From NCBI GenBank assembly GCA_010093745.1, contig MU005977.1, positions 124,116 through 188,115 of the forward strand: DNA of 64,000 nt, in the 5' to 3' direction. This stretch comes from Piedraia hortae CBS 480.64 (Eukaryota). Below, in pieces: positions 1,160 through 18,210 of this stretch. The notes under the pieces are model-generated. The model was not told where the DNA came from, ran no database searches, and saw nothing but the letters and a program-made list of their open reading frames with translations. Made by a program: the position numbers and the translations under genes. Numbering within the stretch: the first letter of the stretch is position 1; each line of letters begins with the position of its first letter.

Positions 1160-3541
1160 CTACATTACACGGCAGTCTTTTACATTTGGTGCTCCCTGGA
1201 TGTTTGGTTGCGTAGGTCTTGCCGAGCTGCCCGGTGCTGGAGAGCTCGGAGATTGTGCATTCTGATGCTGCTGTCGTCTCAGAGCCTCGTAGGCACTAAG
1301 GGGATTTCCCTGCGGTAGACCAGACGGTGTGCTACCTGCAGGTCTGTATGGTCTGTCGTATGAAGACTGCTCATACGACGGCGGTGCATCGGGGTTGTTG
1401 CTGCCATCAGTGGGTCGATGCACTCCTGGACGGCCTCCTCTGCCAACACCACCACGTCCACCACCACCACCACCACCTCCTCCTCCTCCTCCTCCTCCTC
1501 CTCCCCGTCCTCCCCGTCGCGGTGGAATGGGGGGACGTCCATTTTCGGAAGAAAGATATTGCTGTGAAAGCTCCTCATTACGACGCCGTTGCTCCGCTTC
1601 TCTTCTCTGCGCTGCCTCTTCTTCTTCTTGTAGTTGCAATGCGAGGGCGAGATCGTGGTCTTCTTGCTCTGTCTGCGGTATGTCACCATGATTATCAGAC
1701 GCTTGGTGACCGTCGTCGTGACTGACTGCTCTGAAATCTCCGCTAAACAGTTCACTAGCAGAGCCGTTGACATCGACCAAGCTCTCCCAAACGATTTCAT
1801 CGTGCGAGCTGTACCCAGCATCAGTAACCAGAGTCATGAGGGCACCACGTTTGGGCTCTTTATACAGTGTGCTAAAATGATCGTTGCGGAACAGATTCGC
1901 AAACTGACCAGGTTTTAGCGTCTTCCCAAGCCAGGTGAGGCCGTATTCCGTCAACTGAGTCGGCCATGTGGTTAAAAAGTACTTGATAGTCTGGATGTCT
2001 GATAATGTCTGTTGTTCGTCTGGAGTCAACCCACCGGCAAGGCGTTTCTCTTCAAGAAGCGGCTCCTGGAATTGTATATTCTGTGCATCTTCAAACGTTG
2101 GAGCCGTGCGTTGAAAGGCGAAAAAGGCTGGTGAAGTGGCTGACGGCACCCAGGCGTGGATCAGAGGAATGTTGAACGTCTTGTGAAGCCGCATCTCTTT
2201 TGTTTCGTCAAACTGTCCAGGAGTGATGAAACTGGGATTGACATTCATGCCCGTGTGTAGCCGTTTGAGAAATGCATACAGCTCATCCACCTCTGGCAAG
2301 TTCTGGGTCCTATTTCCGGACACGAGCTGGTCAAACACCGCTTCCAGTAGCAGACTGAGGCTGATGGTTTCTCTTGTCCGGAGCATCTCAACCAGGGCGG
2401 TGGGGGAGCTGCTATGAGGGGTGCTGAGAACGAGGGCGTTAACCAGGGCGAGCAGCGGACACGGTCCGTTTGCATTTTGTACCAGAATCGGCGAGTTCCG
2501 CATTTTATCGCAGGAGGCGTCGTACCAGTTGATGTGTTTGATGCTGAAGCTTTCTTCTGGGGTTGGTGTCACGGTACGATGGGTTTCAGGGGGGCGATCT
2601 GATTGATGCTGCACGGCAGAGTGCAAACTCTCGGTTGCAGGATATGGTAGAGGCTGCTCATCCAGCCCTCCCGCAGCAGGAGCAGAAACTGGCTGAGACT
2701 GCTTGTTGTAGCCTTCATTCCACCCCTCAGCAGGCAGTGCAGCTGCCACATTTGACAGTGCAGGACCCGATGGAGGCTGCTTGCTACCGCCCCACAGTTC
2801 CGTAGCAGAGAGAAGGTCTCCCGGCACAGAAACTGGTTGATGTTGCTTATTACTGTTGTCACCCCATCTCTCCGCGGCGGCGACAGCATCTCCCGACACA
2901 GCAGCAGGTTGGGGCTGCTTGCCTGGGAGAGAAACCGGCTGCGTCTGCTGTCCATCATTATCACCCCACCTCTCCTCCGGCAACGCAGCAGCAGCAGCCA
3001 TCACACCTGACAGCACTGGACTCGCTGGAATCTTCTCCGCCACCCCTCCATCCCGATCCGGATACGGCGTCTTCTTTGCATTCTCTAACCTCCACGGATT
3101 CCCTCCCACGGCCTCTGCCTCTGCCGCTACATTCCCCGCCTCAACCGTCTCCTTCCCACCCAGCGCCAACCTTCCCATCCCCTCCACGGGATTATACGCC
3201 TTGAACTCCCCCTTTGTCGTCGCCGCCCACGCAGTAGAACTATCATCCTGCAGCGCCGGACCCTGTAACTCCGCCCCCTGTGCCATCCCCGTCTCCAAAG
3301 CGCCATGCATCCTAAACGGATTGTTCCCCTTGTCCCTATCCACCCATGGGTTCTTCCTCCCCCCTCCCGGCCTCAAAACCTCCGGCACCTCCTGTTGCTC
3401 TTTCTTCAGCACGTTCAACGGCTTCGGCGCTTCAGGTTCGGGGTCACTATCGTCCCACGTCCCGTGGCTGCTTATATCTGAGTCGCGTCGAGTAATGATT
3501 CCTTTCGGGGAGGTAGGGTAGGGGGGAATTGTCTGGACCAT
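1160..3541 (-). CDS. MINDY-family (DUF544) K48 deubiquitinase, Miy1/Miy2-like
   Basis: QNANGPCPLLAL (catalytic Gln/Cys), FRNDHF (catalytic His), LVTDAGY..VWESL, MIU-like DHDLALALQLQEEEE, C-terminal CaaX CRVM. Confidence 0.9.
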   Translation of the reverse strand: MVQTIPPYPTSPKGIITRRDSDISSHGTWDDSDPEPEAPKPLNVLKKEQQEVPEVLRPGGGRKNPWVDRDKGNNPFRMHGALETGMAQGAELQGPALQDDSSTAWAATTKGEFKAYNPVEGMGRLALGGKETVEAGNVAAEAEAVGGNPWRLENAKKTPYPDRDGGVAEKIPASPVLSGVMAAAAALPEERWGDNDGQQTQPVSLPGKQPQPAAVSGDAVAAAERWGDNSNKQHQPVSVPGDLLSATELWGGSKQPPSGPALSNVAAALPAEGWNEGYNKQSQPVSAPAAGGLDEQPLPYPATESLHSAVQHQSDRPPETHRTVTPTPEESFSIKHINWYDASCDKMRNSPILVQNANGPCPLLALVNALVLSTPHSSSPTALVEMLRTRETISLSLLLEAVFDQLVSGNRTQNLPEVDELYAFLKRLHTGMNVNPSFITPGQFDETKEMRLHKTFNIPLIHAWVPSATSPAFFAFQRTAPTFEDAQNIQFQEPLLEEKRLAGGLTPDEQQTLSDIQTIKYFLTTWPTQLTEYGLTWLGKTLKPGQFANLFRNDHFSTLYKEPKRGALMTLVTDAGYSSHDEIVWESLVDVNGSASELFSGDFRAVSHDDGHQASDNHGDIPQTEQEDHDLALALQLQEEEEAAQRREAEQRRRNEELSQQYLSSENGRPPIPPRRGGRGGGGGGGGGGGGGGGGRGGVGRGGRPGVHRPTDGSNNPDAPPSYEQSSYDRPYRPAGSTPSGLPQGNPLSAYEALRRQQHQNAQSPSSPAPGSSARPTQPNIQGAPNVKDCRVM
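1457..1503. repeat. (CCA)n(CCT)n trinucleotide tract encoding poly-Gly in MINDY gene
   Basis: ccaccacca...cctcctcct; reads as a Gly run on the minus strand. Confidence 0.9.
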
Positions 3542-3868
3542 TTTGTTACCGTTGGAGCAGTTTGGGGGAGGGGGGTTTTTGTATGGTGGTGGTTTTGGGG
3601 GTTTACAGGCTGCTGTGAGGGTGCGCGTGGAGGGTGCGCGTCGATGACGTAGTGAATCCTACGACTGACGTGACTACACACGTATCATATGTACGAAAAC
3701 ACTTTCGTGATTTAGGTAGTGGGTGGTTTACATAGGGCTCGTCTGGGTAGATGGGTATGTACATGAGTTTCGCAATGGTTCGTGCATGCACGACTTTTGA
3801 CGAGGTGCACGTTGAACCATGCAGCGAATATGCCAAGCCTGTCAAACATCCACCCACAAAACTGTCGG

Positions 3869-3929
3869 AAAAAAAGAAATAGAAATAAGAAAGAAAAAAA
3901 AAAAATTAAAAATTAAAAAAAATAAAAAA
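3869..3929. repeat. Imperfect poly(dA) tract in MINDY/GARS divergent promoter
   Basis: About 60 nt almost entirely A. Confidence 0.85.
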
Positions 3930-3995
3930 GAGTCGAGGGACGACATATCTACCTCAACAGCCAATCCGCCAGCTACCAATCCTCCACCATCAGAT

Positions 3996-5309
3996 ATGCC
4001 AACGACTATCCCATCCGATCCCCCCGCCCCCGGTTCTTTACGAATCCTCCTCCTCGGCTCCGGCGCCCGCGAAGCATCCCTCGCTACCTCCCTCTCTGCC
4101 TCCCCCCTCGTTTCCGAGATCCACCTCGCCCCCGGCAACGGGTCCTCTATTCCCAAATGCACCAACCACCCCTCCCTCACCGAAAGCAATTTCCCCGCCC
4201 TCGTCGCCCACGCGAAGCATGCCTCCCTCAACCTCCTCCTCCCGGGCAGCGAAGCGGCCCTCGTCGCCGGAATAACCGACTACTTCACCCTTCACGCCCC
4301 ATCGATCCTAACCTTCGGCCCCACCGCCTCCGCCGCAAGGCTAGAAGGGAGTAAAACCTTCTCCAAACACTTCATGCATAAACACAACATCCCTACGGCT
4401 AAATGGGCGAGTTTCGACGATCTCGCTGAGGCGGAGGCGTACCTCGATAGCGTCGATTACGACGTCGTTATTAAAGCTGACGGGTTAGCCGCCGGAAAAG
4501 GCGTGATCATCCCCCGCGGGAAGGACGAGGCCAAGGTCGCGGTCAAGCAGATGCTGCAAGCCAAGGCTTTTGGGGCAGCGGGAGAGAGGGTCGTTGTTGA
4601 GGAGTTACTTACAGGGGAGGAGGTCAGTGTATTGTCGCTCTGCGACGGGGAGGGGATCGTGTCCTTTCCAGCAGCGCAGGATCATAAGAGGATCTGGGAG
4701 GGGGATAGGGGCCCGAATACGGGGGGGATGGGGACGTATGCTCCTACGCCGTTTGCGACGGGGGACGTGATGGGGGTTGTGGAGAGGGAGGTTTTGCAGC
4801 CGACGTTGCAAGGGATGAAGAGGGATGGGAGCCCGTTCAGGGGGTGTTTGTTCACGGGTTTGATGCTTACGGACCAAGGGCCGAGGGTGTTGGAGTATAA
4901 TGTTCGTTTTGGGGATCCGGAGACGCAGAGCGTTCTTGCTTTGCTGGAGGGGGATTTTGCGAAACTCGTGTGGGAGTGTTGCGTTGGTGGGCTGGGGAAG
5001 GGGTTAAGGGTTCTTGATCAGGCGGCGTGTACTGTTGTGATTGCTGCGGGGGGGTATCCTGGAGTTTATGCCAAGGGGAAGAGGATTTCGATTGAGGAGC
5101 CAAAAGAGGAGGGAGTGTATGTGTTTCATGCGGGGACGAAGATAGACCAGGATGGACGGCTGGTTACGAATGGAGGGAGGGTCATTTCGGTTACTGCACG
5201 GGGAGAGACGCTGGAACGAGCGGTGGCTAAGGCGTATAGGGCAGTCAAGGGAATTCGGTTCGAGGGGATGCAGTATAGAAAAGATATTGCTGCCAGGGCG
5301 TTGAAGTAG
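3996..5309 (+). CDS. ADE5: Stand-alone phosphoribosylamine-glycine ligase (GAR synthetase, PurD / Ade5 half only)
   Basis: LLLGSGAREA, APGN, LEGSKTFSKHFM, VIKADGLAAGKGV, QDHKRIWEGDRGPNTGGMG, EYNVRFGDPETQ, HAGT..TNGGRV; ends YRKDIAARALK-stop with no AIRS domain. Likely ATG at 3996 (MPTTIP). Confidence 0.95.
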   Translation: MPTTIPSDPPAPGSLRILLLGSGAREASLATSLSASPLVSEIHLAPGNGSSIPKCTNHPSLTESNFPALVAHAKHASLNLLLPGSEAALVAGITDYFTLHAPSILTFGPTASAARLEGSKTFSKHFMHKHNIPTAKWASFDDLAEAEAYLDSVDYDVVIKADGLAAGKGVIIPRGKDEAKVAVKQMLQAKAFGAAGERVVVEELLTGEEVSVLSLCDGEGIVSFPAAQDHKRIWEGDRGPNTGGMGTYAPTPFATGDVMGVVEREVLQPTLQGMKRDGSPFRGCLFTGLMLTDQGPRVLEYNVRFGDPETQSVLALLEGDFAKLVWECCVGGLGKGLRVLDQAACTVVIAAGGYPGVYAKGKRISIEEPKEEGVYVFHAGTKIDQDGRLVTNGGRVISVTARGETLERAVAKAYRAVKGIRFEGMQYRKDIAARALK

Positions 5310-5315
5310 GAATGT

Positions 5316-5931
5316 CTATAGCTGCTTGCCCATGAATTTGCGCTTCTGGAAGCTGAGCCACCACTGGCAAGTTAGTTCAAGGGAGTGTACGATAGAGGGA
5401 TGTTCCCACCTTACTGGGCTGCCCCGTCCCGTCGAGGTAGACTCTATTCAGCAGCCTTGCAGCCAACTCTTGTCTCATCTGAACGATATACTGCCTCAGA
5501 AGCTCGGCCTGGTCTCTACTCGCAGGAGCCTCAAACGCCTGATTCAGCGGAAACCCGGCATCGCCAGGGATCGCAAAATTCGTATCCAGCGCTGTATTCA
5601 TGACGGCCTTTTCCGCCTCCCGTCTTGACATCCCAGGTTTGATCTTAGACAACGCCTCCGAAACAAACAAGATCCCATAAATCAAATCCCGATCAGCAGG
5701 CCCTTTGATTTCGAAATTGCGAAAAAAGGTATTCGCCCGGAAAAGAGAAATGACCTCATCTAGGATATCGTAGTCTGCATGGTTGGGCTCGATATCCAGC
5801 TCGGAGACATCAACAAGCTGGTTCAACTGCTGCGCCGGACCGCGCGTTTTGGTGCGCAGTGGCAACAGAGCAAAGTTGCCGATTAGCTGCTGGTTCGGCT
5901 CGTCCAGGAAGACGCTGTGATACGCCGGCAT
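5316..5931 (-). CDS. ARC18: Arp2/3 complex 21-kDa subunit (ARPC3); intron 5364-5409
   Basis: MPAYHSVFL...FRANTFFRNFEIKGPADR...FAIPGDAGFPLN; a 46-nt GT..AG intron, then terminal exon WWLSFQKRKFMGKQL-stop. Confidence 0.95.
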
Positions 5932-5957
5932 CGTTGTCTCGTTGGAGTGACGTTGGT

Positions 5958-5989
5958 GGGGGGGGGGGGGGGGGGGGAAAAAGGGGGGG
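5958..5989. repeat. Poly(dG) tracts in ARC18/RFC bidirectional promoter
   Basis: G20-A5-G7. Confidence 0.9.
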
Positions 5990-6068
5990 TTATCGTAACT
6001 GACGGTAAGTGACGTGTATCAGATAGCCGTCCGAACAGGGGCGCGTCAAAAGTCCTCCAGCGATTGCA

Positions 6069-7181
6069 ATGTCAGACTCGGACATCGAAATGGCCGACGC
6101 AGGCATCCAGTTCAGCGCAGCAGCCAAAGGAAAGCGCAGCGCAGCAAACCTCCCAATCGAAGCTGAAGACAGCCTGCCGTGGGTAGAAAAATACCGTCCA
6201 TCGTCGCTCAGCCACGTCAGCGGCCACGAAGACATCCTAGCCACAATCAAAAAGTTCCTCGACAGCAACCGTCTGCCCCATCTCCTCCTCTACGGACCCC
6301 CTGGAACAGGAAAAACAAGCACAGCCCTAGCGTTGGCGCGCCAAGTCTACGGCGCAAGCAACATGCGGCAGATGGTGCTGGAGCTAAACGCGTCCGACGA
6401 CCGTGGCATCGACGTCGTGCGTGAGCAGATCCGCACTTTTTGCTCTACGAAACAGATCTTCGCTGGAAAAGCAGCGACAACAGCGGCATCGTTCAAACTC
6501 ATCGTCCTGGACGAAGCGGATGCAATGACCAGCACAGCGCAGATGGCGTTGAGACGCATCATGGAGAAATATACCGCCAATGCACGGTTCATCATAATCG
6601 CAAATTATACGCATAAGCTCAGTCCCGCTTTGTTGTCGCGATGTACGCGGTTCCGCTTCTCGCCGCTTCATGAGGGGGATATACGACGGTTGGTCGATAG
6701 GGTCGTTGTTGAGGAGGGGGTGGATATCTCAACCGAGGCGACGGAGAGTTTGGTTAAGCTTAGTAAAGGCGATATGCGGAGGGCATTGAACGTCCTGCAG
6801 GCGTGTCATGCTTCGTCTACGCCGTTGGATAATCCTACCAAGAAGGATACAATTACGCAGGAGACGGTGTATGATTGCATTGCCGCGCCGCATCCAAAGG
6901 ATATGGCTACGATTGCGTCGACGCTTCTTGCAACTTCGGATCTGGCAAAGTGTCTCTCTACGATAACTACACTCAAAACCTCCCATGGGTTGGCATTAGC
7001 AGACATTCTGACCTCTCTATCCGAGCATCTGATGGAACTTGACGTTCCGCCACAGACGCGCGTAGCGTGGCTTTCTGGTCTGTCAGAAATTGAATACCGC
7101 CTCAGCGGGGGCGGGAGTGAGACTCTGCAGACGGGGGGGATGGTAGGCGTTGTTCGGAATGGAGTTTCTCTCTCAAAGTAG
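6069..7181 (+). CDS. RFC3: Replication factor C small subunit (yeast Rfc3 / human RFC5 type)
   Basis: LPWVEKYRP, LPHLLLYGPPGTGKTST (Walker A), ELNASDDRGIDVVR, LDEADAMT (Walker B), SRCTRFRF, GDMRRALN. Confidence 0.93.
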   Translation: MSDSDIEMADAGIQFSAAAKGKRSAANLPIEAEDSLPWVEKYRPSSLSHVSGHEDILATIKKFLDSNRLPHLLLYGPPGTGKTSTALALARQVYGASNMRQMVLELNASDDRGIDVVREQIRTFCSTKQIFAGKAATTAASFKLIVLDEADAMTSTAQMALRRIMEKYTANARFIIIANYTHKLSPALLSRCTRFRFSPLHEGDIRRLVDRVVVEEGVDISTEATESLVKLSKGDMRRALNVLQACHASSTPLDNPTKKDTITQETVYDCIAAPHPKDMATIASTLLATSDLAKCLSTITTLKTSHGLALADILTSLSEHLMELDVPPQTRVAWLSGLSEIEYRLSGGGSETLQTGGMVGVVRNGVSLSK

Positions 7182-7191
7182 GCATCCATCC

Positions 7192-7202
7192 CTCTTTCTA
7201 TC

Positions 7203-7240
<38 letters not shown>
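7192..7240. repeat. (CT)n microsatellite abutting assembly gap
   Basis: tctctctatctctctc... runs into the Ns. Confidence 0.92.
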
Positions 7241-7725
7241 NNNNNNNNNNNNNNNNNNNNNNNNNNNNNNNNNNNNNNNNNNNNNNNNNNNNNNNNNNNN
7301 NNNNNNNNNNNNNNNNNNNNNNNNNNNNNNNNNNNNNNNNNNNNNNNNNNNNNNNNNNNNNNNNNNNNNNNNNNNNNNNNNNNNNNNNNNNNNNNNNNNN
7401 NNNNNNNNNNNNNNNNNNNNNNNNNNNNNNNNNNNNNNNNNNNNNNNNNNNNNNNNNNNNNNNNNNNNNNNNNNNNNNNNNNNNNNNNNNNNNNNNNNNN
7501 NNNNNNNNNNNNNNNNNNNNNNNNNNNNNNNNNNNNNNNNNNNNNNNNNNNNNNNNNNNNNNNNNNNNNNNNNNNNNNNNNNNNNNNNNNNNNNNNNNNN
7601 NNNNNNNNNNNNNNNNNNNNNNNNNNNNNNNNNNNNNNNNNNNNNNNNNNNNNNNNNNNNNNNNNNNNNNNNNNNNNNNNNNNNNNNNNNNNNNNNNNNN
7701 NNNNNNNNNNNNNNNNNNNNNNNNN
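7241..7725. other. Assembly gap (485 N)
   Basis: Run of n characters. Confidence 1.
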
Positions 7726-8839
7726 CCCCGCCTTTCACAAGCGGCAGCAAATGTCCCAACGCCCCCACGGGTTCCAAACAACTCACAACAACCAACCCAT
7801 CGAACCCCCCCCTCCTCGTCTCGTCCACAATGCTCCTACATCGCTCCCACCTCCTCCTCTTTCGAAAATACGATGCCCGTTTCGCCGGCTTATAACCCCC
7901 CAACTCCTCAGCACCAACCCCCGGGGGTTCGGTATACATCCCATCCTCCCCCGGGTGCAGCAGTTGCAGCCAAGAGAGGGGTTTGAGATGCGTATGCAGC
8001 GCGTGCGTTGAATCGGGGGAGTTGCTATCGTATCCGAAGTGTTTAAGGAGGCTGATGTTGGGTTGGATCGAGGTGTGGAGGAGGGTTATACTGTTTCCCC
8101 GTGCGGGGAGGGGGAAGTCCCTATATCGGGAGGGAGGGGAGTCCCTACCGTGACTGGTTGGAAGATCCCTATAGTGGGTGGAAAGAAGGCCCATCCGTTC
8201 CGCCATTGCGGCGACGACTAAACCCCCCGTTTCGTCGATTACGAGGTATCGCTTCGCGGAGGAGTAGTGGATGTTTGCGTGGGATAAGAGGAGGGAGAGG
8301 GTTTCGGGTCGGATGTGCATTATCCTAGACGGATCTTTGTCGAGTAAATGGGTTGTTAGGTTGGGAATGCTCATAGGCAGGAGGGTGATCCGCTTTAGGT
8401 ACTTTGTGCGTTTGCGGAGGAGGTATTTTGCTTTCGAGTAGCTTGTTTTTTCTGCCAACGCGGTGTGGTTTTCGACGAGTTTTGTGATGAGTGCGGTGCC
8501 GGTTATGGGGCCGCGTTTGAGGGATTCGATTTCGCTTTGGGTGAGGTTCTGCCGCGTGCTGGAGTCGATGGTGTTTTGGTTTGTTTTTGGGAGGTCATCC
8601 GGTGAGGATTCCACGGTTTCGGCGTTTAGGAGAGATGGACTGATGGGTTGGAGGTAGGGGGACGCGTCTAGGACTTCGTAGGTGCGGTGGTAGCAGCGTC
8701 CGACCAAGGCGTTTGACGGCACGGTGCCCGGTTTGCCCAGGTCGATGACAGTGTCGGGGACGAGGTCGATTAGTTTGAGGAGTTTATTGGGGAGGCGGAG
8801 GAAGAGGCTTGTATTCGCTTCGACGGATGCTTTTGTCAT
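7726..8839 (-). CDS. TRM6: tRNA m1A58 methyltransferase non-catalytic subunit (3' end lost in gap)
   Basis: Gcd10/Trm6-like: NQNTIDSSTRQNLTQSEIESLK, HTALAEKTSYSKAKYLLRK, YLVIDETGGLVVAAMAERMG, GGFDGLVV. Confidence 0.88.
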
Positions 8840-8975
8840 GGTGGGAAGGGGGGAATACTTTGTGGGAGGGATATTTCATGTGGGGGACGGGACGGGCTAT
8901 GGGAGAATATTCTTTCTGGTGGACGTCTAAAAAAGAGTCTTGGCAGTGACGCTACTATTACATCTAGGCTAATCC

Positions 8976-11278
8976 TCATGCGAGAATAATCGACAGCGTG
9001 TCCCCCGACCCAAACGCCTTGGCGCAGCTCGGACACTTGCGCGATCTGTTCGTGATCAAATCCTTGACGCAGTCGCCGCAAAAGACGTGGCCGCACACTT
9101 TGAGCAGCGTGTTCCTCATGTTCGCATTGCACACCGGACATATTGCAATCCTCTGCAGAGACATTAGCATGACCCATCGAGTAGACGGAACAACATACCC
9201 GCCAGTCGTCGGAACTCGCCGAATTATCAGCCGCCCGCGTGCGACGCAGCTGTTCACACTGCTTCTTCGCTTCATCCAGCCGCACCCGACACTTTTCCAG
9301 CTCCACTTCGACCTCCCTCTTGGCTTTGTTCGCCGAAACAGCCGCCTTGTCTTTCCCGCCAACCAGCTCCTTGTACTCGTCTAGCTGCTTCTTAAACCCT
9401 TCAATGGCAAGATCAGACTGTTTGCTTCGCTGTTCAAGCGTTCGGTACTGGTTCTCCAGCTTGACCAGGTTCTCATGAGACTCTGCCAGCTGACGCTCGT
9501 AATTCGTCAACTTCTCTCTTGCTTTGTGGTCAGCATCCTTGAGCTGGGTGACAATCTCCGAAGACCTCGCGCTCTGCTGCTTCAGTACTCTCAGCTCTCC
9601 CTCCCTCATGTCTTTGGCTTTCATGGCAGCAAAGTACTTTTGATCCGCCTTGCTCTTCTCCGCACTGAGCCGGATGACGGTCTCCTCGTGCTGCACAAGA
9701 TCCTCGACTTTCTTCGTCGCAATGGCTGTCGTCTTCTGCCACGCCGCCTCCATTGACGAAAGCTCGTCGCTCAGAAGCGAACACTGCTGCTCCAGCGTCC
9801 TCACCTTGGCCTTGAGAGCATCGTTGTCCATACCGTCCAGATCCGACTCGGGCGGCAAGGTCTCGCCCATTTGCAGCTTCAATCGTGAAATCTTCAACTC
9901 CAACGACTTGATCCGCTCTTGGCTCGTCTCTGCCAGTTCCTGCGCCAGGGCAGCCGCCTTCTTGCGTTCAGTCTCCCCAGCCTTGGCCAGTTGAAGCTGT
10001 GCTGCGAGTTCATCGCGGGCATTTCGAATGCGCACGAGGTCGGAATCGAGTTTGGAAATCTCGCCACGAGCCTTTTCGGCTTTCTCACGGCCCAACTCGT
10101 CCATTTCGTTCCTGTAAGCTTGACGCTCCGACTGCAGCTTCTGCGCCTCTTCCCGCAGCTTCGTGTTGGTAGCCTCCAAGTCATTTACGCGCTTGACGAC
10201 ATGCTCGAACTGCGACTTTATGCTCTTGAAGAGGCCCGTCTCTGCGTAATCATCGTCTGACAGGCTGATCAACTTGGCCCGCGCCTGGCCGAGTTCGGCA
10301 GACAAGCGTTCATTCTCCGCTTCGACCTCTTTTAATTGCGCCTTTTGCTTCTCTGCAGCTGCCATGGCCTCGTTTCGCGCAGTTTCTGCCTCGGCAATGG
10401 TCGCCTCGTCTTCGGCCTTTCCGTTTACGTCCTCTTTTACCACCACCTTCTTCGCCGCCGGAGCCTCTGTGCTTCCGCCAATGGCCTGTCGTTCCAGTTT
10501 CAAGATCTGCGTGCTCTTGGCACGATCGACGGCCTTTTCGGCCTTCAAATAGCGATAGCTGGCCTCTTCCAGTCGATGCGTCAACGCCTCTTGCTGGTCA
10601 AGGGCCTCGCGCAACTGAACGGCATGTTCCTTCTCCCTCGCCAAAGCCTCGTTGAGTTGCTTCCGAAGCGCGCCAACCTCGGGCGACTCCGACGACAGGC
10701 TGCCAAAGAGGGCCGTAATCACCTCCCTGATCTTATCCGACCGACCTTTTAAATGGGCCGAGAAGGCGTCATTGTGTTCAAACAGCAGGGCCGAGCCGTA
10801 CAATTCCCCACCTATCGATATCTCAGCATTTGTTCTCCTCGGACAGGGGCAGAATCGTACCAGGATCGGTCGTCGTCGGCCGGCCGGCCATGACGCGCAC
10901 CTCGTCCAGCATCTGGGCGAACCAGGCGTCAATGGTGCGCAGATGGTCGTTGTGGAATTTGCAGTCCTCTGCGAGCTGCTTGTACTGTTCCTCCAGCGAC
11001 GCTTTCTGGCGCTTGTAGTCCTTCATCTGCCGAAGGATGGCGTCCTTTTGGAAGTTCTGCGGCGCGTCAGTTGAATTCCGCCGTTCGGTCGCTCAACTCA
11101 CCTCGACATCTTTCTCCTTTTCGGCGTCCATCCGCATGGCCTGGCCGTGCTCGTCTTTGATCATGCGCTTGCGAGAATGGGAGACATTGTCGTCGGCAGC
11201 CAGCGACCTCTTGCGATGTTCCATTTTGACCTTTGCAATAGACGGGGCTGCATTCGCGCTGGTCGGGGCGATTTGCAT
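8976..11278 (-). CDS. BRE1: E3 ubiquitin ligase Bre1 (H2B ubiquitination); 3 introns (about 11057-11101, 10812-10860, 9152-9197)
   Basis: N-terminal KMEHRKR..NFQKDAILRQMKDYKR, long coiled coil with KADQKYFAAMK, C-terminal RING CPVC..CGHVFCGDC..RSRKCPSC. Start is 11278 or 11224. Confidence 0.92.
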
Positions 11279-11473
11279 GGGTATCGAAGAATGTCCAGTC
11301 TGCTTTGCTTCCTCGCGGCTTTGTGTCTTGGAGAGGAAAGGCAAAGTGCACGTCCCTCTGATAGGGTTAGCACGTACTAGGGTTCGGCTTGCTGCCCCAT
11401 CCGTAGACATCACAGGTCACAGCCATCACAGATCACAGCGGCCCACCGGGTCCACTGCTTAGGGTTTACAGCC

Positions 11474-13012
11474 ATGTCAAACATCATCAGTTCAGCCGTG
11501 GCCGGCAGGGCCACGGCTCCAAGGGTTCCAGTTCGTCGTCGAGCGCCGCAAAAGAAAGCAGAGGCCAGCAACCCCGCCCCCGCCGCTCCTGAAGCTGCTC
11601 AGCACGAGGCCGCCAGTCCACCGCTCCAGACACCGCCGGCCACCCAAGTCACAGCCACCCAGTCGGCAAACTTCAGCCCAGAGCCTAGTACGCCTGAGCA
11701 AGTCCCATGTACCGAATTTCTCCCTCAGAACAGAAGGAAGCCCACCCCAGGTGCCCCACCCATTCAGGATGCACAACTGCCGGCACCCACTCAAGATGCA
11801 CCGCTGCCCACCCCCGTTGCGACTCAAGTCCAGCAGGTGGACCCAGACGCGACTCCTGCACCGGAGCCAGTCGAAGCACCACCCCCAAAGCGCAAACGCA
11901 CGAGAAAATCAACTCCAAAGGCCAAACACAACCCAGGCGAAGACGGCCAAGATGACGACCATCGGCGAAGAGAACAGCGAGAAAGACGCGAACGAGAACG
12001 GGAAGCTCACCAACATGATCCAGCGGCCACATCCATGTGGGAACTTGCGCGGGACTCGCGCAACGGCCAAGTGTCTGAACGGGAGAGACAGATGAGACAG
12101 ATTGACTGGGATGAAGTGAAGCAGAAGCGACGGGAAGCCGAAGATCAGCTTGTAGCGGATGCCCAGGAACGACAAGAGCGGAATAGGGAGCAGCGATACA
12201 TCCAGCTGGGTCTCGCCCTGCCAGATGCCGGCAACGACGAGACTGAAGATGCTCAGGCAGAGGACGGGACTGCAGAAGGAGAGTCTGCAGGAGAGACTGC
12301 AGGAGAGACTGCAGAAGGAGAGACCGCCGAGACAGAACAGCCCACCAGAGCGGGACCTGCACTGCGAATCGTCAATGGAGAAATCATGCTTGACGAAGAG
12401 GCCCCGGAAGAGGCGCCCCCGGAAGATGATTATGCCGACATCCTCGCACAGGAAGACGCAGATCTTACAGTACGCAGGAATCGAATGGTGGGCATCAACA
12501 ACCGCCGTCGGGAGCCTGCAGACCGTCTACCGCCAGCGCGTAAACGGGGCGGAAAGACGCGCAACGGGGCATGGACAACAGAAGAAACCGACATGCTGTA
12601 CCAACACATGCGTATGTGGGGGACAGACTTTGAAATGATTGCGCAGATGATGCCGAACCGCACCCGCGCTCAGGTGAAGCGCAAGTTTCTCGCCGAGGAG
12701 AAGCTGGATCCCGTTCGCATGAGGGAGACGTTTATGGCTAAACCGATTCCCATGTCGATTGATTACTACGCTGAGCATACTGGTCGTGATAAGAGCGTCT
12801 ACACCCAGTACGAGGGTCTTGACGATTGCATGAACCAGATCAAGGAGACTGTAGCTGATGTGAGGAGACAAAAGGAACAGCGAGAGGAAGAAGCGAGACA
12901 GCAGGTGCAGAAAGATCAAGATGAGGCAGAAGCCAGAAAGGCAAGTGCGAAGCGGAAGAGGGAGGGAAAGAAGAGGAAAAGAGAGGCCGAGGTGCAGTTA
13001 GAAGATGAGTAG
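11474..13012 (+). CDS. BDP1: TFIIIB B'' subunit (SANT/Myb domain)
   Basis: GPALRIVNGEIMLDE, WTTEETDMLYQHMRMWGTDFEMIAQMMPNRTRAQVKRKFLAEEK. Confidence 0.88.
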   Translation: MSNIISSAVAGRATAPRVPVRRRAPQKKAEASNPAPAAPEAAQHEAASPPLQTPPATQVTATQSANFSPEPSTPEQVPCTEFLPQNRRKPTPGAPPIQDAQLPAPTQDAPLPTPVATQVQQVDPDATPAPEPVEAPPPKRKRTRKSTPKAKHNPGEDGQDDDHRRREQRERREREREAHQHDPAATSMWELARDSRNGQVSERERQMRQIDWDEVKQKRREAEDQLVADAQERQERNREQRYIQLGLALPDAGNDETEDAQAEDGTAEGESAGETAGETAEGETAETEQPTRAGPALRIVNGEIMLDEEAPEEAPPEDDYADILAQEDADLTVRRNRMVGINNRRREPADRLPPARKRGGKTRNGAWTTEETDMLYQHMRMWGTDFEMIAQMMPNRTRAQVKRKFLAEEKLDPVRMRETFMAKPIPMSIDYYAEHTGRDKSVYTQYEGLDDCMNQIKETVADVRRQKEQREEEARQQVQKDQDEAEARKASAKRKREGKKRKREAEVQLEDE

Positions 13013-13022
13013 AATCGGAGGC

Positions 13023-14390
13023 TTACCCGGCCCATTGGGGATTTTTGAAGGTGACGAGATTGCGCCATCGGAACCAATCGTCATCGGGACCAAAGCCGAG
13101 TGCCGTCAGAGGACTTATGGGCACCGGTTCCAGCAGCCACACGCCTCCGCGAGCGAGATCGTTTAGCAGAAGCGGCGTTGTAATGTAGAACCAGAGGTAT
13201 GTGTACGTCAAATTACACAGGCGACGCGGCCATCGCGGTGCGGATGCAATTCCAACGTACTCACACAGAGCAATGAGTACCTGCTGAAGGATAATGCCGA
13301 GGGTTTGCAGGTTGAAGAAGAGAAACGGGGCAAGGGGCCGTGTGTGTCCCGTCTGCGTGTGGCTCCCAGCTGCATGGATCAGTCCTGAGAGGAAAAACGC
13401 AACTGCAGCAGACATCAAACGTCCTGTAATCGAACGAGACGATGTCCTCGTGCCCGATATCATCGCCTTTGCCGGAGCCTTGAACGAAGCTCGAAACGTC
13501 TGATGCCACCAGCCTCCCCACCATCCCGCCAGCCCGTGGTCGAGGATCAAGGACGCGTCCCCAAACATATCCAGCGGGTTCATCACCGCCTCGCCTTTGA
13601 GTCCCAATATCCCTGGCCCCAATAAGCCCACAAACACAATCGGCGCCAACTTGAAAATCGTATACAACGCAGTATACAATCCCGCCAAACTGAGCAAAAG
13701 CCGATATCCCTTTGCAAGCCCCTGGGGAATCAAGCCCTCCACATACTCCGGCAGTGACGCATTCAAATCCCCCGTCCAGAAATACTCGTCCGAATGCATC
13801 ACACACGCAAGGGCATCCAGCGCAAGATACCCACACAGCAATCCGGCCAACGCCTTCCTCACCAACTCCCTCCTATTCCCAAACCTCCTCACCCCCGACT
13901 TTCCCGTCGTCATGCCCCCAGGGCCCGGAACGGGCGGAATCCCATCCACCTCCCAATTCCAGCCCACGCCACGCACGCTACAAACCAAATCAAGCACCCA
14001 ATAAACCCTCCTAATCCCAAACCGATCTGGAAATATTTCCCTTTTCCCATCCCTCTTCACCCTCCAAAATTCAGTCTGGCAGTTATTGAATAACCCCAAG
14101 AACGCGAGCCAGAGACATCCCCACGAGGAGATGATTCCGATTCCATACGCTGCTGCGGGATTTCGCGCGCGGGTGAACAGGACACACCACAGCTGGAATC
14201 CCACCACGAAAAGAAAAGCCATCCATCGAAGAGCTCTAGAGTGAGGGTCAAGGAGGAGGTAAGTGAGCGCCGCCCCCGCGCCTAGAAAACAGAACGGAAA
14301 GGAGAAAGGCCTCCTCCCCCCATACGTAACCGCCTGCTCATCAAATAACCTATCATGATGCCTCCTCGCTTCGTAGAATGACATGTCCAT
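13023..14390 (-). CDS. Membrane-bound O-acyltransferase / wax-synthase (MBOAT_2, Tri7-like) protein
   Basis: Multi-TM; RGVGWNW, GLAGWWGGWWHQTFR, AFFLSGLIH, FFNLQTLGI. Start placed at MDMSFYEAR because sequence further upstream is occupied by RBG2 exons. Confidence 0.8.
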   Translation of the reverse strand: MDMSFYEARRHHDRLFDEQAVTYGGRRPFSFPFCFLGAGAALTYLLLDPHSRALRWMAFLFVVGFQLWCVLFTRARNPAAAYGIGIISSWGCLWLAFLGLFNNCQTEFWRVKRDGKREIFPDRFGIRRVYWVLDLVCSVRGVGWNWEVDGIPPVPGPGGMTTGKSGVRRFGNRRELVRKALAGLLCGYLALDALACVMHSDEYFWTGDLNASLPEYVEGLIPQGLAKGYRLLLSLAGLYTALYTIFKLAPIVFVGLLGPGILGLKGEAVMNPLDMFGDASLILDHGLAGWWGGWWHQTFRASFKAPAKAMISGTRTSSRSITGRLMSAAVAFFLSGLIHAAGSHTQTGHTRPLAPFLFFNLQTLGIILQQVLIALCEYVGIASAPRWPRRLCNLTYTYLWFYITTPLLLNDLARGGVWLLEPVPISPLTALGFGPDDDWFRWRNLVTFKNPQWAG

Positions 14391-14413
14391 GCAGCGGAGA
14401 CGTGAGTGTGGTG

Positions 14414-14421
14414 TGACGTCA
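14414..14421. promoter_or_regulatory. CRE/ATF-type palindrome TGACGTCA in 82-nt bidirectional promoter
   Basis: GTGACGTCAC perfect 10-bp palindrome between two divergent ATGs. Confidence 0.45.
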
Positions 14422-14472
14422 CGGCGTCTACCTCCGCCTTTGCGATCGCACAGAACTCTTGTAGTCGCAAAA

Positions 14473-15345
14473 ATGGTCAATATAACCGACAAAATCAAAG
14501 AGTATCCCATCCCCCTTTCCCTTGTGTAGTTCTCTAAGTGTGTAGGATCGAAGATGAAATGCGTCGAACGCAGAGTACGTTTCTCCTTACCCTCCCCCTC
14601 AATCCTAACATCACAAAGAAAATAAAGCAACCGGTACGTTCCTTCCCTTAACCCATCCCCTCCGCTAACAGCGGTAGAGTACCACCTCGGTCTCCTCAAA
14701 GGGTGCGCCCAATCCCTCTCCCACCCAACAACTAACATAGAAATTAAAAAAAAAAAAAAAACAGTAAACTCGCCCGTCTCCGCGCCCAACTCCTCGAACC
14801 TGGTCCCGGCGCTGGCAGCGGCGGGGGGTCGGGGTTCGATGTCTCCAAATCAGGCGATGCGCGGATCGCATTGGTCGGCTTCCCCTCCGTCGGAAAGTCC
14901 ACCTTCCTCTCTCGCGTGACAAAAACAAAATCCGAAATCGCAGCCTACTCGTTCACGACCCTAACCGCCATCCCCGGTGTTCTGGAATACGGTGGTGCGG
15001 AGATTCAGGTTCTGGACCTACCGGGGATTATTGAAGGAGCGTCAGAGGGTAAAGGACGGGGACGACAGGTGATTTCTGCTGCGAAGACGAGTGATTTGAT
15101 TTTGATGGTGCTTGACGCGACGAAGAGGGCAGAGCAGAGAGCCCTGCTTGAGGCTGAGCTTGAGGCGGTTGGGATAAGGCTGAATTCGGCTCCGCCGGAT
15201 ATTGTTTTGAGGGTCAAGAAAGCGGGGGGGATGAAGATTACGTTTCAGAATCCGCCGAAATACTTGGATGAGAGGTTGGTGGGGGGTGTGCTTAGGGATT
15301 ATAGGATACTGAATTGTGAGGTGCTTGTGAGGGATGAGAATGGTG

Positions 15346-15419
<74 letters not shown>

Positions 15420-15924
15420 ATTTTTTTTTTTTTTGATTCGATTTGACGGATGGATGAGGCTAACTAGGACAGCTACGGTAGACCAGTTCATCGACGTGAT
15501 TATGCGCGAACACAGGACTTATATCAAGTGTTTGTACGTGTACAACAAGGTCGATGGGATCAGTCTGTCTTTTCTGGACAGTCTAGCCCGCGAGCCGAAT
15601 ACGGCTGTTATGTCGTGCGAGCTGGATATTGGGATACAAGATGTGGTTGATCGGTGCTGGGAGGAGCTAGGATTGATCAGGGTGTATACGAAACGAAAAG
15701 GTGTCGAGCCGGATTTCAACGAGGCGCTGATTGTGAGGAACAATAGTTCGATCGAGGATGTGTGCGATCATATCCATCGGGGATTGAAGGAAAGCTTCAA
15801 GTATGCGCTCGTCTGGGGAGCGAGTGCGAGACATGTCCCGCAGAGGGTTGGGTTGAGCCATGTCGTGGCCGATGAGGATGTGGTTTCGATTGTTGGGTCG
15901 AAGAGTGGGCTTGCTACTAGGTAG
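14473..15924 (+). CDS. RBG2: DRG-family ribosome-binding GTPase (Rbg2/DRG2); 5 introns
   Basis: Spliced [37 protein letters not shown]; introns 14502-14545, 14575-14618, 14634-14677, 14703-14764, 15343-15472; [25 protein letters not shown]-domain end [15 protein letters not shown]. Confidence 0.93.
15348..15434. repeat. Long poly(dT) inside last RBG2 intron
   Basis: About 70 T, then GA, then 14 T. Confidence 0.95.
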
Positions 15925-16040: not shown

Positions 16041-18210
16041 ATGATAACAATCAGTATGTCCTCCCCCTTGGGTAGTACTCCAGCTAACCCTTCCAGAGGT
16101 CCCCTGCTCCTCCGCCAACATCGGTACCAAATTCCCCCGCAAAGCATCCCTCCTCTACTAACCAAACCCAGGACCCGGATTCGATGTAATCGGCCTCGCG
16201 CTAAGCAGCTATCTTACCCTGACCGTCACCCGGGATGAATCCGCATCCACCCTCCCTGATAAATGTCTCATAACAACCCAGTCAGGGGAGTCCGACATCC
16301 CCACCCTCCCAAGCGAAAACCTCATAACGCGCGTCGCCCTCTACGTCCTCCGCTGCCACGGGATCCACACCTTCCCCTACCCCCTCCACCTTCTCATCCG
16401 CAACGAAATCCGCCTGGGCCGGGGGCTGGGCTCCTCCGGCGCAGCCGTCGTAGCGGGCGTCGCACTGGCCAACAGCGTCGCAACCCTCGCTCTCTCTCGG
16501 GAGCGAATGCTCGACTACTGCCTCATGGTCGAGCGGCACCCCGATAACGTCGCCGCTGCCCTCTACGGCGGATTCGTCGGCTCTTACCTCCGGGAACTCG
16601 ACCCCGAGGGTCTCCGTCGTAAAGAAATCCCCTTAGCAGAAGTCCTACCCTCACCCCAAGGCGGGGAGGATACGGGTCTCCAACCCCCCGTCCCCCCAAA
16701 AGACATCGCGAAACACATCCGCTTCCCCTGGGCAAGGGAGATTAAATGCATAGCCGTAATCCCAGAGTTTGAGGTCAGCACTGCTACCGCGCGGAGCGTC
16801 CTTCCTCAAACCTACGCGAAGCGCGATGTGGTGTATAATCTCCAGCGCGTAGCGTTGCTCACCACTGCGTTAGGGCAAAGTCCCCCCAACGCGGAGCTTA
16901 TCTACGCTGGCATGCAGGATCGGCTTCACCAGCCGTATCGGAAGGGTCTCATCCCCGGACTCGAGGGGGTTTTGAAATCGGTAACGCCTGCTTCGCACCC
17001 GGGTTTGCTGGGGATCTGTCTCTCGGGCGCGGGTCCGACGATCCTCGCTCTCGCGACGAGGAATTTCAATATCATTGCCAAACACCTCATCGGGGAGTTT
17101 GCGAAGGAGGGGGTTAGGTGTTCCTGGCGGTTGCTCGAGCCCGCGTACGAGGGTCTGACTGTGAGTGGGGAAGCGAAAACTGTCCGCTACGCGGACGCGG
17201 GGGTTTCGATTGATAAGGGCAATGAGTTTGTGCAGAGGATTAAACCCCTCGTTGGGAGCACGAAACGTGAGGGTGCGGATGCGGAGATTGGGGGGTTCGG
17301 AGGCGCGTTTGACCTCGCGTCCGCGGGGTACAATGCTCCGCCGACGATCGTGCAGGCTATTGATGGCGTGGGGACGAAGTTGAAAATCGCGGTTGCGGTG
17401 GGGGAGCTGGGGACGATTGGCGTCGATCTCGTCGCGATGAATGTTAATGATTTGGTTGTACAGGGGGCCGAGCCGTTGACGTTTATGGATTATTATTCTA
17501 CGTCAAGACTGGATGTTGAGACGGGGATAAAGTTTCTGGAGGGTGTAGCGAAGGGGTGTAAGGAGGCTGGCTGCGCGCTTGTGGGAGGCGAAACGGCGGA
17601 AATGCCGGGAATTTATGCCACGGGTGACTTTGATGCTGCGGGTGCTGCTACAGGCGCGGTGGAGAGGGGGAAACCGCTTCTTCCGTTGAAGGGGAGGATG
17701 AAAGAGGGGAATGTGTTGGTTGGATTGCCCAGTTCGGGACCGCATTCGAATGGATATTCCCTCATAAGGAAGCTGGTGGAGGGGTTGGATTACTTTCAGC
17801 CTGCTCCGTGGGACACAAGGGTTAAGTTGGGTGAGGCACTGCTCACTCCGACGAGGATTTATGTCAGAACTCTCCTCCCGCTGGTTAAGAGGAATTTGGT
17901 CTTGGGCATGGCGCATATCACGGGTGGTGGGCTAGAAGATAATGTGCCGAGGATGTTGCCGGATCATCTCGGGGCTGAACTAGATGCGACCAAGTGGAGT
18001 GTGCCGGAGTCGTTGAAGTGGTTGAAGAAGGAGGGCGCGCTGGACCATAAAGAGTTTGCGAGGACGTGGAATACGGGTCTGGGTATGGTGTTGGTTGTTG
18101 AGGAGGGGGAGGTGGATGAGGTGTTGAAGCTATGCGAAGATGCGAGGGTGGTGGGGAAGGTTGTGGATGGTAAAGGGGTCAAAATTACGGGAACGGAAGT
18201 GTGGGATTGA
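16041..18210 (+). CDS. THR1: Fusion protein: homoserine kinase (THR1) + AIR synthetase (PurM / Ade7 half); introns 16054-16096, 16124-16171
   Basis: Spliced [68 protein letters not shown] (HSK end about 17163). Continues in frame via SGEAKT into YADAGVSIDKGN..GGFGG..DGVGTK..VAMNVNDL..GAEPL..GGETAEMP..SSGPHSNGYSL..AHITGGGL..TWNTGLG (AIRS). No stop between the domains. Confidence 0.93.

Follow-up and report, generated by a model that had tools for sequence, protein, structure and literature searches.

The question raised by this locus is why a fungal gene for GAR synthetase (GARS) ends at the point where the bifunctional ADE5,7 gene would run through a linker into AIR synthetase (AIRS), and what became of the AIRS half. 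The locus lies in a stretch of 64,000 nucleotides from contig MU005977.1 of Piedraia hortae CBS 480.64, which is referred to as the window and in which all coordinates below are counted. In the window, GARS is a gene of its own, and AIRS is found further along the same strand, fused to the homoserine kinase gene THR1. The P. hortae pair is very probably its copy of an architecture common to the listed relatives from the Dothideomycetes, which goes back to a fission of ADE5,7 with AIRS joined to THR1.

The translated open reading frame of the GARS gene gives a protein of 437 aa with the C-terminus ...MQYRKDIAARALK, directly followed by the stop codon, and this exact sequence was found in the protein collection searched. 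Pfam recognises GARS_N (2-100 of 100), GARS_A (1-194 of 194) and GARS_C (1-92 of 92) on it, and no AIRS domain. The NCBIfam model purD (TIGR00877) matches over positions 2-424 of its 425 with 472 bits (cut-off 288). Among solved structures, the closest are human GART, through its GARS domain (2qk4, 381 bits), and the GARS of Cryptococcus (7lvo). By domains and score the protein is a GAR synthetase (PurD), a function predicted from the profiles. AIRS and AIRS_C do not follow GARS in one polypeptide, as they do in a bifunctional Ade5,7. An earlier note, made from the letters of the window alone, had described a stand-alone GARS that ends at the linker and a convergent ARC18 gene so close that no AIRS exon could fit. 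Both observations were correct: the protein stops at ...RKDIAARALK, the two stop codons lie at 5307-5309 and 5316-5318, and the gap between them is 6 nt (5310-5315). The RNA evidence was taken from the assembled contigs of one public run (X1), which are spliced and are silent on transcript ends and levels. One of these contigs (record 1) spans GARS from 4124 to 5363 with no joint and continues onward into ARC18.

The AIRS half was located on the same strand, with 10.7 kb from the GARS stop to the THR1 start and the AIRS domain beginning at about 17182. The reading frame 16162-18210 (+) is unbroken and carries the Pfam domains GHMP_kinases_N, AIRS and AIRS_C. The introns 16054-16096 and 16124-16171, both of the GT..AG type, are skipped in the RNA contigs, so the start was placed at ATG 16041, which gives the N-terminus MITIKVPCSSANIGPGFDV... 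The 692-aa product is the same as the Piedraia hortae CBS 480.64 database protein P0003 in length and sequence (100%). The NCBIfam model thrB (TIGR00191) covers residues 3-344 with 334 bits (cut-off 168, positions 2-301 of 304), and purM (TIGR00878) covers residues 351-679 with 372 bits (cut-off 236, positions 1-331 of 332). Solved homoserine kinases match the N-terminal half and AIR synthases the C-terminal half, the best solved relative of the latter being 7lvp, the AIR synthase of Cryptococcus. A look-up of the protein in the ESM Atlas gave no usable match. A homoserine kinase and an AIR synthetase are thus both recognised in one frame and one transcript, and the reading frame, the Pfam domains and the RNA contigs agree with the first description of AIRS as lying on the same strand, 10.7 kb away, fused to THR1 and parted from GARS by seven unrelated genes. 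Both genes are intact and transcribed in P. hortae. The coordinates are collected in Table 1.

Table 1. Coordinates of the two purine genes and of the genes around them in the window
Feature	Position	Strand	Details
GAR synthetase (PurD/ADE5-type), coding sequence	3996..5309	+	437 aa, no intron seen; TAG stop 5307-5309
THR1-AIRS fusion gene	16041..18210	+	692 aa; exons 16041-16053, 16097-16123, 16172-18210
Homoserine kinase (ThrB/Thr1) half	16041..17163	+	residues 1-344, ends ...LLEPAYEGLTV
Linker between the THR1 and AIRS halves	17164..17181	+	shortest among 14 aligned relatives
AIR synthetase (PurM) half, ex-partner of GARS	17182..18210	+	starts ...YADAGVSIDKGNE
MINDY deubiquitinase, divergent upstream neighbour of GARS	1160..3658	-	Pfam; tblastn
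ARC18/ARPC3, convergent with GARS	5316..5931	-	Pfam P21-Arc, E 2.9e-62; last exon 5316-5363; intron 5364-5409
Seven genes between GARS and THR1-AIRS	5316..15924	mixed	Pfam scan of open frames

The two genes could be an artefact of annotation or assembly if a long intron or trans-splicing connected GARS to AIRS, or if THR1 and AIRS were two genes, and a GTGAGT hexamer at the THR1/AIRS junction (at about 17160) gives this idea some footing. The RNA contig 16171-17581 crosses the junction and passes the hexamer without a joint, the frame stays open, and conserved AIRS residues follow right after it. At the other gene, the only splice in the RNA contig that runs past the GARS stop into ARC18 is the ARC18 intron, and none joins GARS to a downstream exon; moreover, the GARS stop is conserved in all relatives checked. 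We regard such an artefact as highly improbable. As a splice donor, the hexamer was rejected, as it is unused in the assembled RNA and both the frame and the alignment continue through it.

Both architectures recur in the relatives of P. hortae. The search with the THR1-AIRS protein returned 6226 matches, and domain data were obtained for the best 120 of them. All 120 are proteins of 652-836 aa with PF00288, PF00586 and PF02769, and 119 of them are 62-70% identical to the remaining one, the window's own P0003. The named carriers listed include Friedmanniomyces, Zymoseptoria, Hortaea, Pseudocercospora, Aureobasidium, Elsinoe, Myriangium and Coniosporium. Public records label the listed proteins "homoserine kinase" or "phosphoribosylformylglycinamidine cyclo-ligase-like". 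On the GARS side, an AIRS domain is absent from all 120 near-length relatives listed (350-480 aa), and identity is 54-64% for the 119 besides the window's own. Stand-alone GARS among the matches listed comes from Pleosporales (Massarina, Bipolaris), Botryosphaeriales (Diplodia), Dothideales, Myriangiales, Eremomycetales and many Capnodiales; Mycosphaerellaceae (Cercospora, Dothistroma, Zasmidium) are among the closest, at 59-61% identity. Membership of the class Dothideomycetes was looked up for seven species, including P. hortae (Capnodiales), and the remaining named relatives we also take to belong to it.

Fused GARS-AIRS proteins were also listed among the longer matches (779-815 aa, 53-58% identity to the window GARS). 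Those with names come from Sordariomycetes, Leotiomycetes and one Lichinomycete (Watsoniomyces), and no named Dothideomycete with a fused GARS-AIRS is found among the longer matches listed. Metagenome contigs add 8 fungal-type GARS loci among 80 returned, mostly short. Seven of these are of the stand-alone type, with 53-62% identity and a stop at RAL[K/R] or one residue later, and the eighth (L004) is of the fused type and reads on into the linker and AIRS.

This distribution bears on the claim of the earlier note that a local rearrangement broke ADE5,7, which implies an event of this genome. The fission at the linker and the place of AIRS behind THR1 stand, and the restriction to P. hortae does not. 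A recent rearrangement specific to P. hortae has in its favour only the close spacing of the halves in the window, and it is very hard to reconcile with the same architectures and the same break in each protein's 119 other listed relatives, which come from several orders, and with the monophyly of each half described below. The listed relatives lead us to reject it. Within its group, the P. hortae pair is ordinary, if fast-evolving, and the trait belongs to all listed relatives in several orders.

The position of the break was compared in alignments of the stand-alone and fused proteins. All 12 aligned stand-alone GARS proteins end 0-7 residues past RAL/RAF. In the 9 fused proteins aligned, RAL/RAF is followed by a linker of 5-20 residues and then by LTYAxAGVSID. 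The 14 aligned THR1-AIRS proteins show the kinase end ...LLEPAYDGLTV, a linker variable in length and sequence, and then [LM]TYADAGVSID. The pattern is most simply read as one break at the linker that all of them inherited.

Trees of both halves, which had been proposed along with the original observation, place each of them within the fungal GARS-AIRS proteins. The first GARS tree (76 rows, quick search, LG+G4) unites 17 stand-alone Dothideomycete GARS in one group (SH-aLRT 93-96), which is sister to 10 fused GARS of Pezizomycotina (97). Next out are a fused representative of 802 aa (99) and then more long proteins, and representatives of 420-440 aa, the length of bacterial PurD, are mostly placed elsewhere. 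The second GARS tree (231 rows, FastTree) was built from 113 of the 120 near-length matches, 110 of the 120 longer matches and 8 representatives, leaving out 7 near-length rows with at most 380 query residues covered and 10 longer rows with more than one GARS stretch. Here all 113 stand-alone rows fall into a single clade (support 94) that none of the 110 fused rows enters. The clade sits within the span of the fused rows and contains the window GARS (P0001), which shares with it an end of the form ...RKDIAxRAL[K/R] at the start of the former linker.

For the AIRS half, a tree of 50 rows (LG+G4) gathers the 15 THR1-linked AIRS in one clade (98), which lies inside the clade of Pezizomycotina GARS-AIRS (97) and is separated (98) from 18 PurM reading frames of metagenome contigs, the majority of bacterial size. 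A second tree of 46 rows, from which four long rows were omitted and for which a mixture model was used, gave the same result (98, 96, 95, 98). Since the trees nest each half in the fused GARS-AIRS proteins, with support of 96-99, both halves descend from a fungal fused gene.

The same trees were used to evaluate horizontal replacement, in which a bacterial PurD or PurM would have been acquired after loss of ADE5,7. At about 430 aa, the window GARS is as long as bacterial PurD, and bacterial-type representatives are 43-51% identical to it. Identity to the fused fungal proteins is, however, 53-58%, and GARS is grouped with them at 97-99, the very opposite of the grouping with bacterial PurD that the earlier note had named as evidence against itself. 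The AIRS half groups with fungal GARS-AIRS at 96-98, apart from the 18 metagenome PurM frames. Horizontal replacement is refuted by the trees and has next to no likelihood.

Taken together, these data fit a fission of ADE5,7 followed in the two halves as follows. ADE5,7 (GARS-AIRS) would have been broken once, at the start of the linker, probably on the stem leading to the Dothideomycetes. The GARS half would have retained its own gene and acquired a stop right after ...RAL[K/R], and its product is presumed to act as a monofunctional ATP-grasp enzyme at step 2 of de novo purine synthesis. AIRS, which is responsible for step 5, would have ended up at the C-terminus of homoserine kinase (THR1), as one domain of a THR1-AIRS fusion. 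Both enzyme activities are likely to have been retained.

Several points weigh against this account. The copies were seen in a 64-kb window, and a second intact ADE5,7 or a separate THR1 may be present elsewhere in P. hortae. The best 120 of 6226 THR1-AIRS matches are all from Dothideomycetidae and taxa incertae sedis, and among the matches listed the Pleosporomycetidae are represented by stand-alone GARS only. The node of the event is provisional, as sister classes such as Arthoniomycetes lie outside the sampling. All of the trees come from quick searches or FastTree, the mixture-model tree being one of the quick ones, and the outgroup representative proteins are unnamed. The end branches of P. 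hortae are long in all trees (0.46-0.64, compared with about 0.1-0.3 in its kin). An additional AIRS-only transcript from an internal start may also exist, as the RNA contigs lack transcript ends. As an observation on its own, the end branches of P0001 and P0003 are two to four times those of relatives, which suggests fast protein evolution generally in the small P. hortae genome.

The closeness of the two halves in the window raises the further question of whether their order is a footprint of the event. Co-location was judged by identical longest_contig lengths in the 15 species named in both lists. The two genes are on the same contig in 9 of the 15 (Piedraia, Cryoendolithus, Baudoinia, Zasmidium (PRZ48), Acrodontium, Delphinella, Myriangium, Coniosporium and Dothideomycetes sp. 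NU459) and on different contigs in 6 (Oleoguttula, Meristemomyces (LTR62), Neophaeotheca, Polychaeton, Recurvomyces and Vermiconidia). The distance in locus tags is 12 in NU459, on a contig of 168 kb, 200 in Cryoendolithus and 214 in Zasmidium, and the distance between the genes ranges from about 8 to about 214 genes across the species compared. Linkage of GARS and THR1-AIRS looks conserved well beyond chance, and close spacing does not look general. Near the environmental stand-alone GARS, ARC18 was found downstream at none of the 5 loci with at least 0.9 kb of downstream sequence, and neither THR1 nor AIRS was found at any of the 7 loci within the DNA of those contigs.

These distances were considered for two routes by which the halves could have parted. 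By the first, ADE5,7 was split at the linker by one rearrangement within a chromosome, either an insertion or inversions, which at the same time put AIRS behind THR1, so that the present order would be its footprint. The order and strand are as expected if a block ending in THR1 had been inserted into the linker, a shared contig is likely in 9 of 15 species, with the tags 12 apart on the 168-kb contig, and the break falls exactly at the linker in all relatives checked. On the other hand, two species have the tags 200 and 214 apart, 6 of 15 have the genes on separate contigs, and the environmental loci have no ARC18 downstream (0/5) and no THR1 or AIRS (0/7). The same linkage would also be expected if any two linked genes were slowly shuffled within a chromosome. 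We consider this route possible but somewhat doubtful.

By the second route, ADE5,7 or its AIRS half was duplicated, the copy came to lie behind THR1 and the original lost AIRS (reciprocal loss), and the proximity in P. hortae would be secondary, through compaction. The P. hortae genome is the smallest of its class, with 16.95 Mb and 7,572 genes (PMC7082219), and a small genome by itself gives shorter distances between genes. Compaction of the smallest genome in the class would bring genes close, gene distances do differ among species, and the GARS neighbours are unconserved in the environmental relatives save for MINDY in one of them (L003). No intermediate with a fused ADE5,7 as well as THR1-AIRS was seen, however, with 0/110 fused rows in the stand-alone clade, and the identical stop position fits a clean break equally well. 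This route is rather unlikely in our judgement.

A more specific form of the first route is that the order GARS...THR1-AIRS is a relic of one step, in which a block ending in THR1 entered the ADE5,7 linker and so split one fusion and made another. We offer this as a tentative suggestion, with the odds leaning against it. If it is true, the THR1-AIRS chimera would be an undescribed, clean rare-genomic-change marker for Dothideomycetes, and a dimer-forming purine enzyme would have exchanged its purine partner for a partner from an amino-acid pathway.

Fission of ADE5,7 itself has a published precedent. Yemelin et al. (2017, PLoS One, PMC5568738) report that MYCO4 of Zymoseptoria tritici, the ADE5,7 homologue, and its counterparts in related Mycosphaerellaceae have GARS domains only, that AIRS is encoded by another gene in Z. 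tritici, and that inactivation of MYCO4 leads to purine auxotrophy. Like the window GARS, MYCO4 is described there with GARS_N, GARS_A and GARS_C and without AIRS domains. The main text of that paper makes no mention of homoserine kinase, the class-wide spread, the common break point or the phylogeny of the halves. P. hortae differs from Z. tritici in belonging to another family (Piedraiaceae) and in the long branch of its protein. Stand-alone GARS is thus already published for Zymoseptoria, and the pair is already annotated in public records. No relevant paper on a THR1-AIRS fusion was found in the literature, and broader fungal gene-fusion surveys may include it.

Among the better-known systems, the bifunctional Ade5,7 of Cryptococcus neoformans (Ade5,7/Ade1, GARS-AIRS) has been solved as 7LVO and 7LVP (PMC8449271). 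Fungal Ade5,7 contains the same full-length enzyme domains and is the ancestor of both window halves, which differ from it in lying in separate polypeptides, with GARS ending at the start of the linker and AIRS having a new N-terminal partner. Animal GART (GARS-AIRS-GART) belongs to the same series of eukaryotic purine gene fusions as ADE5,7; compared with this three-domain fusion, the window shows the opposite, a fission with a new non-purine partner. Bacterial and plant PurD and PurM (E. coli 1GSO, 1CLI) are stand-alone, of the same length and described by the same NCBIfam equivalog models. In contrast to them, the monofunctional state seen here is secondary, because it nests within fused fungal proteins.

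The window itself matters little, since the pair is the normal Dothideomycete state. The fission and re-fusion, with one break point and one origin, would amount to a rare genomic change clean enough to help with the placement of disputed lineages around Dothideomycetes, and they illustrate how a domain in a core pathway can swap partners. Two purine steps are packaged in these fungi, among them many crop pathogens, unlike in other fungi and animals, a difference already raised as a possible target in the 2017 paper (PMC5568738).

Other unusual GARS fusions appeared in the searches. Six proteins of Fusarium oxysporum (P0262, P0271, P0303, P0308, P0318 and P0346; 1051-1121 aa) combine two GARS-like stretches with a PALP domain (PF00291). 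In the GARS tree, P0262 falls among short representatives of bacterial length, away from fungal Ade5,7, and these GARS-PALP proteins may be a paralogue of separate origin. An environmental protein of 1464 aa (P0242) has two tandem full GARS regions together with GART and AIRS domains and is either an unusual fusion or a merged gene model. The environmental contig L051 encodes GARS (49% identity) and then AIRS (43% identity) in one open frame of 766 aa (7897-10146). In the AIRS tree, L051 groups with the shorter metagenome PurM frames L075 and L079, apart from the fungal fused proteins, and it may be an independent GARS-AIRS fusion.

On the downstream side of GARS, the last exon of ARC18 (5316-5363, minus strand) translates as WWLSFQKRKFMGKQL, followed by the stop 5316-5318. 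The CT..AC joint 5363>5410 in the RNA contig is the spliced ARC18 intron. A single RNA contig (4124-5944) contains the 3' part of GARS and the whole of ARC18 with its intron removed; because one contig covers both, the convergent messengers overlap across the 6-nt gap, and the 3' untranslated region of each gene extends into the coding sequence of the other. A promoter and terminator scan of the gap, made with bacterial models on the DNA of a fungus, gave nothing. Just upstream of GARS, a long A-rich tract (3867-3931) was skipped as a repeat in read placement. The divergent MINDY-GARS pair recurs in one environmental relative (L003, 81-968 (-) and 2468-3796 (+)), and tblastn did not find this adjacency in the environmental loci L009, L041 and L080.

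The block between the two purine genes consists of ARC18 (-), an RFC small subunit (+), TRM6/Gcd10 (-), BRE1 (-), a BDP1-like Myb gene (+), MBOAT_2 (-) and RBG2/DRG (+), in this order. The 3' ends of the open frames of the RFC small subunit (+) and TRM6/Gcd10 (-) share about 375 nt (6806-7181), which is another sign of tight convergent packing unless an intron shortens either of them. In RBG2/DRG, a very long T run (about 15370-15450) lies between two coding blocks and would read as about 25 F in one frame; it was also skipped as a repeat in read placement.

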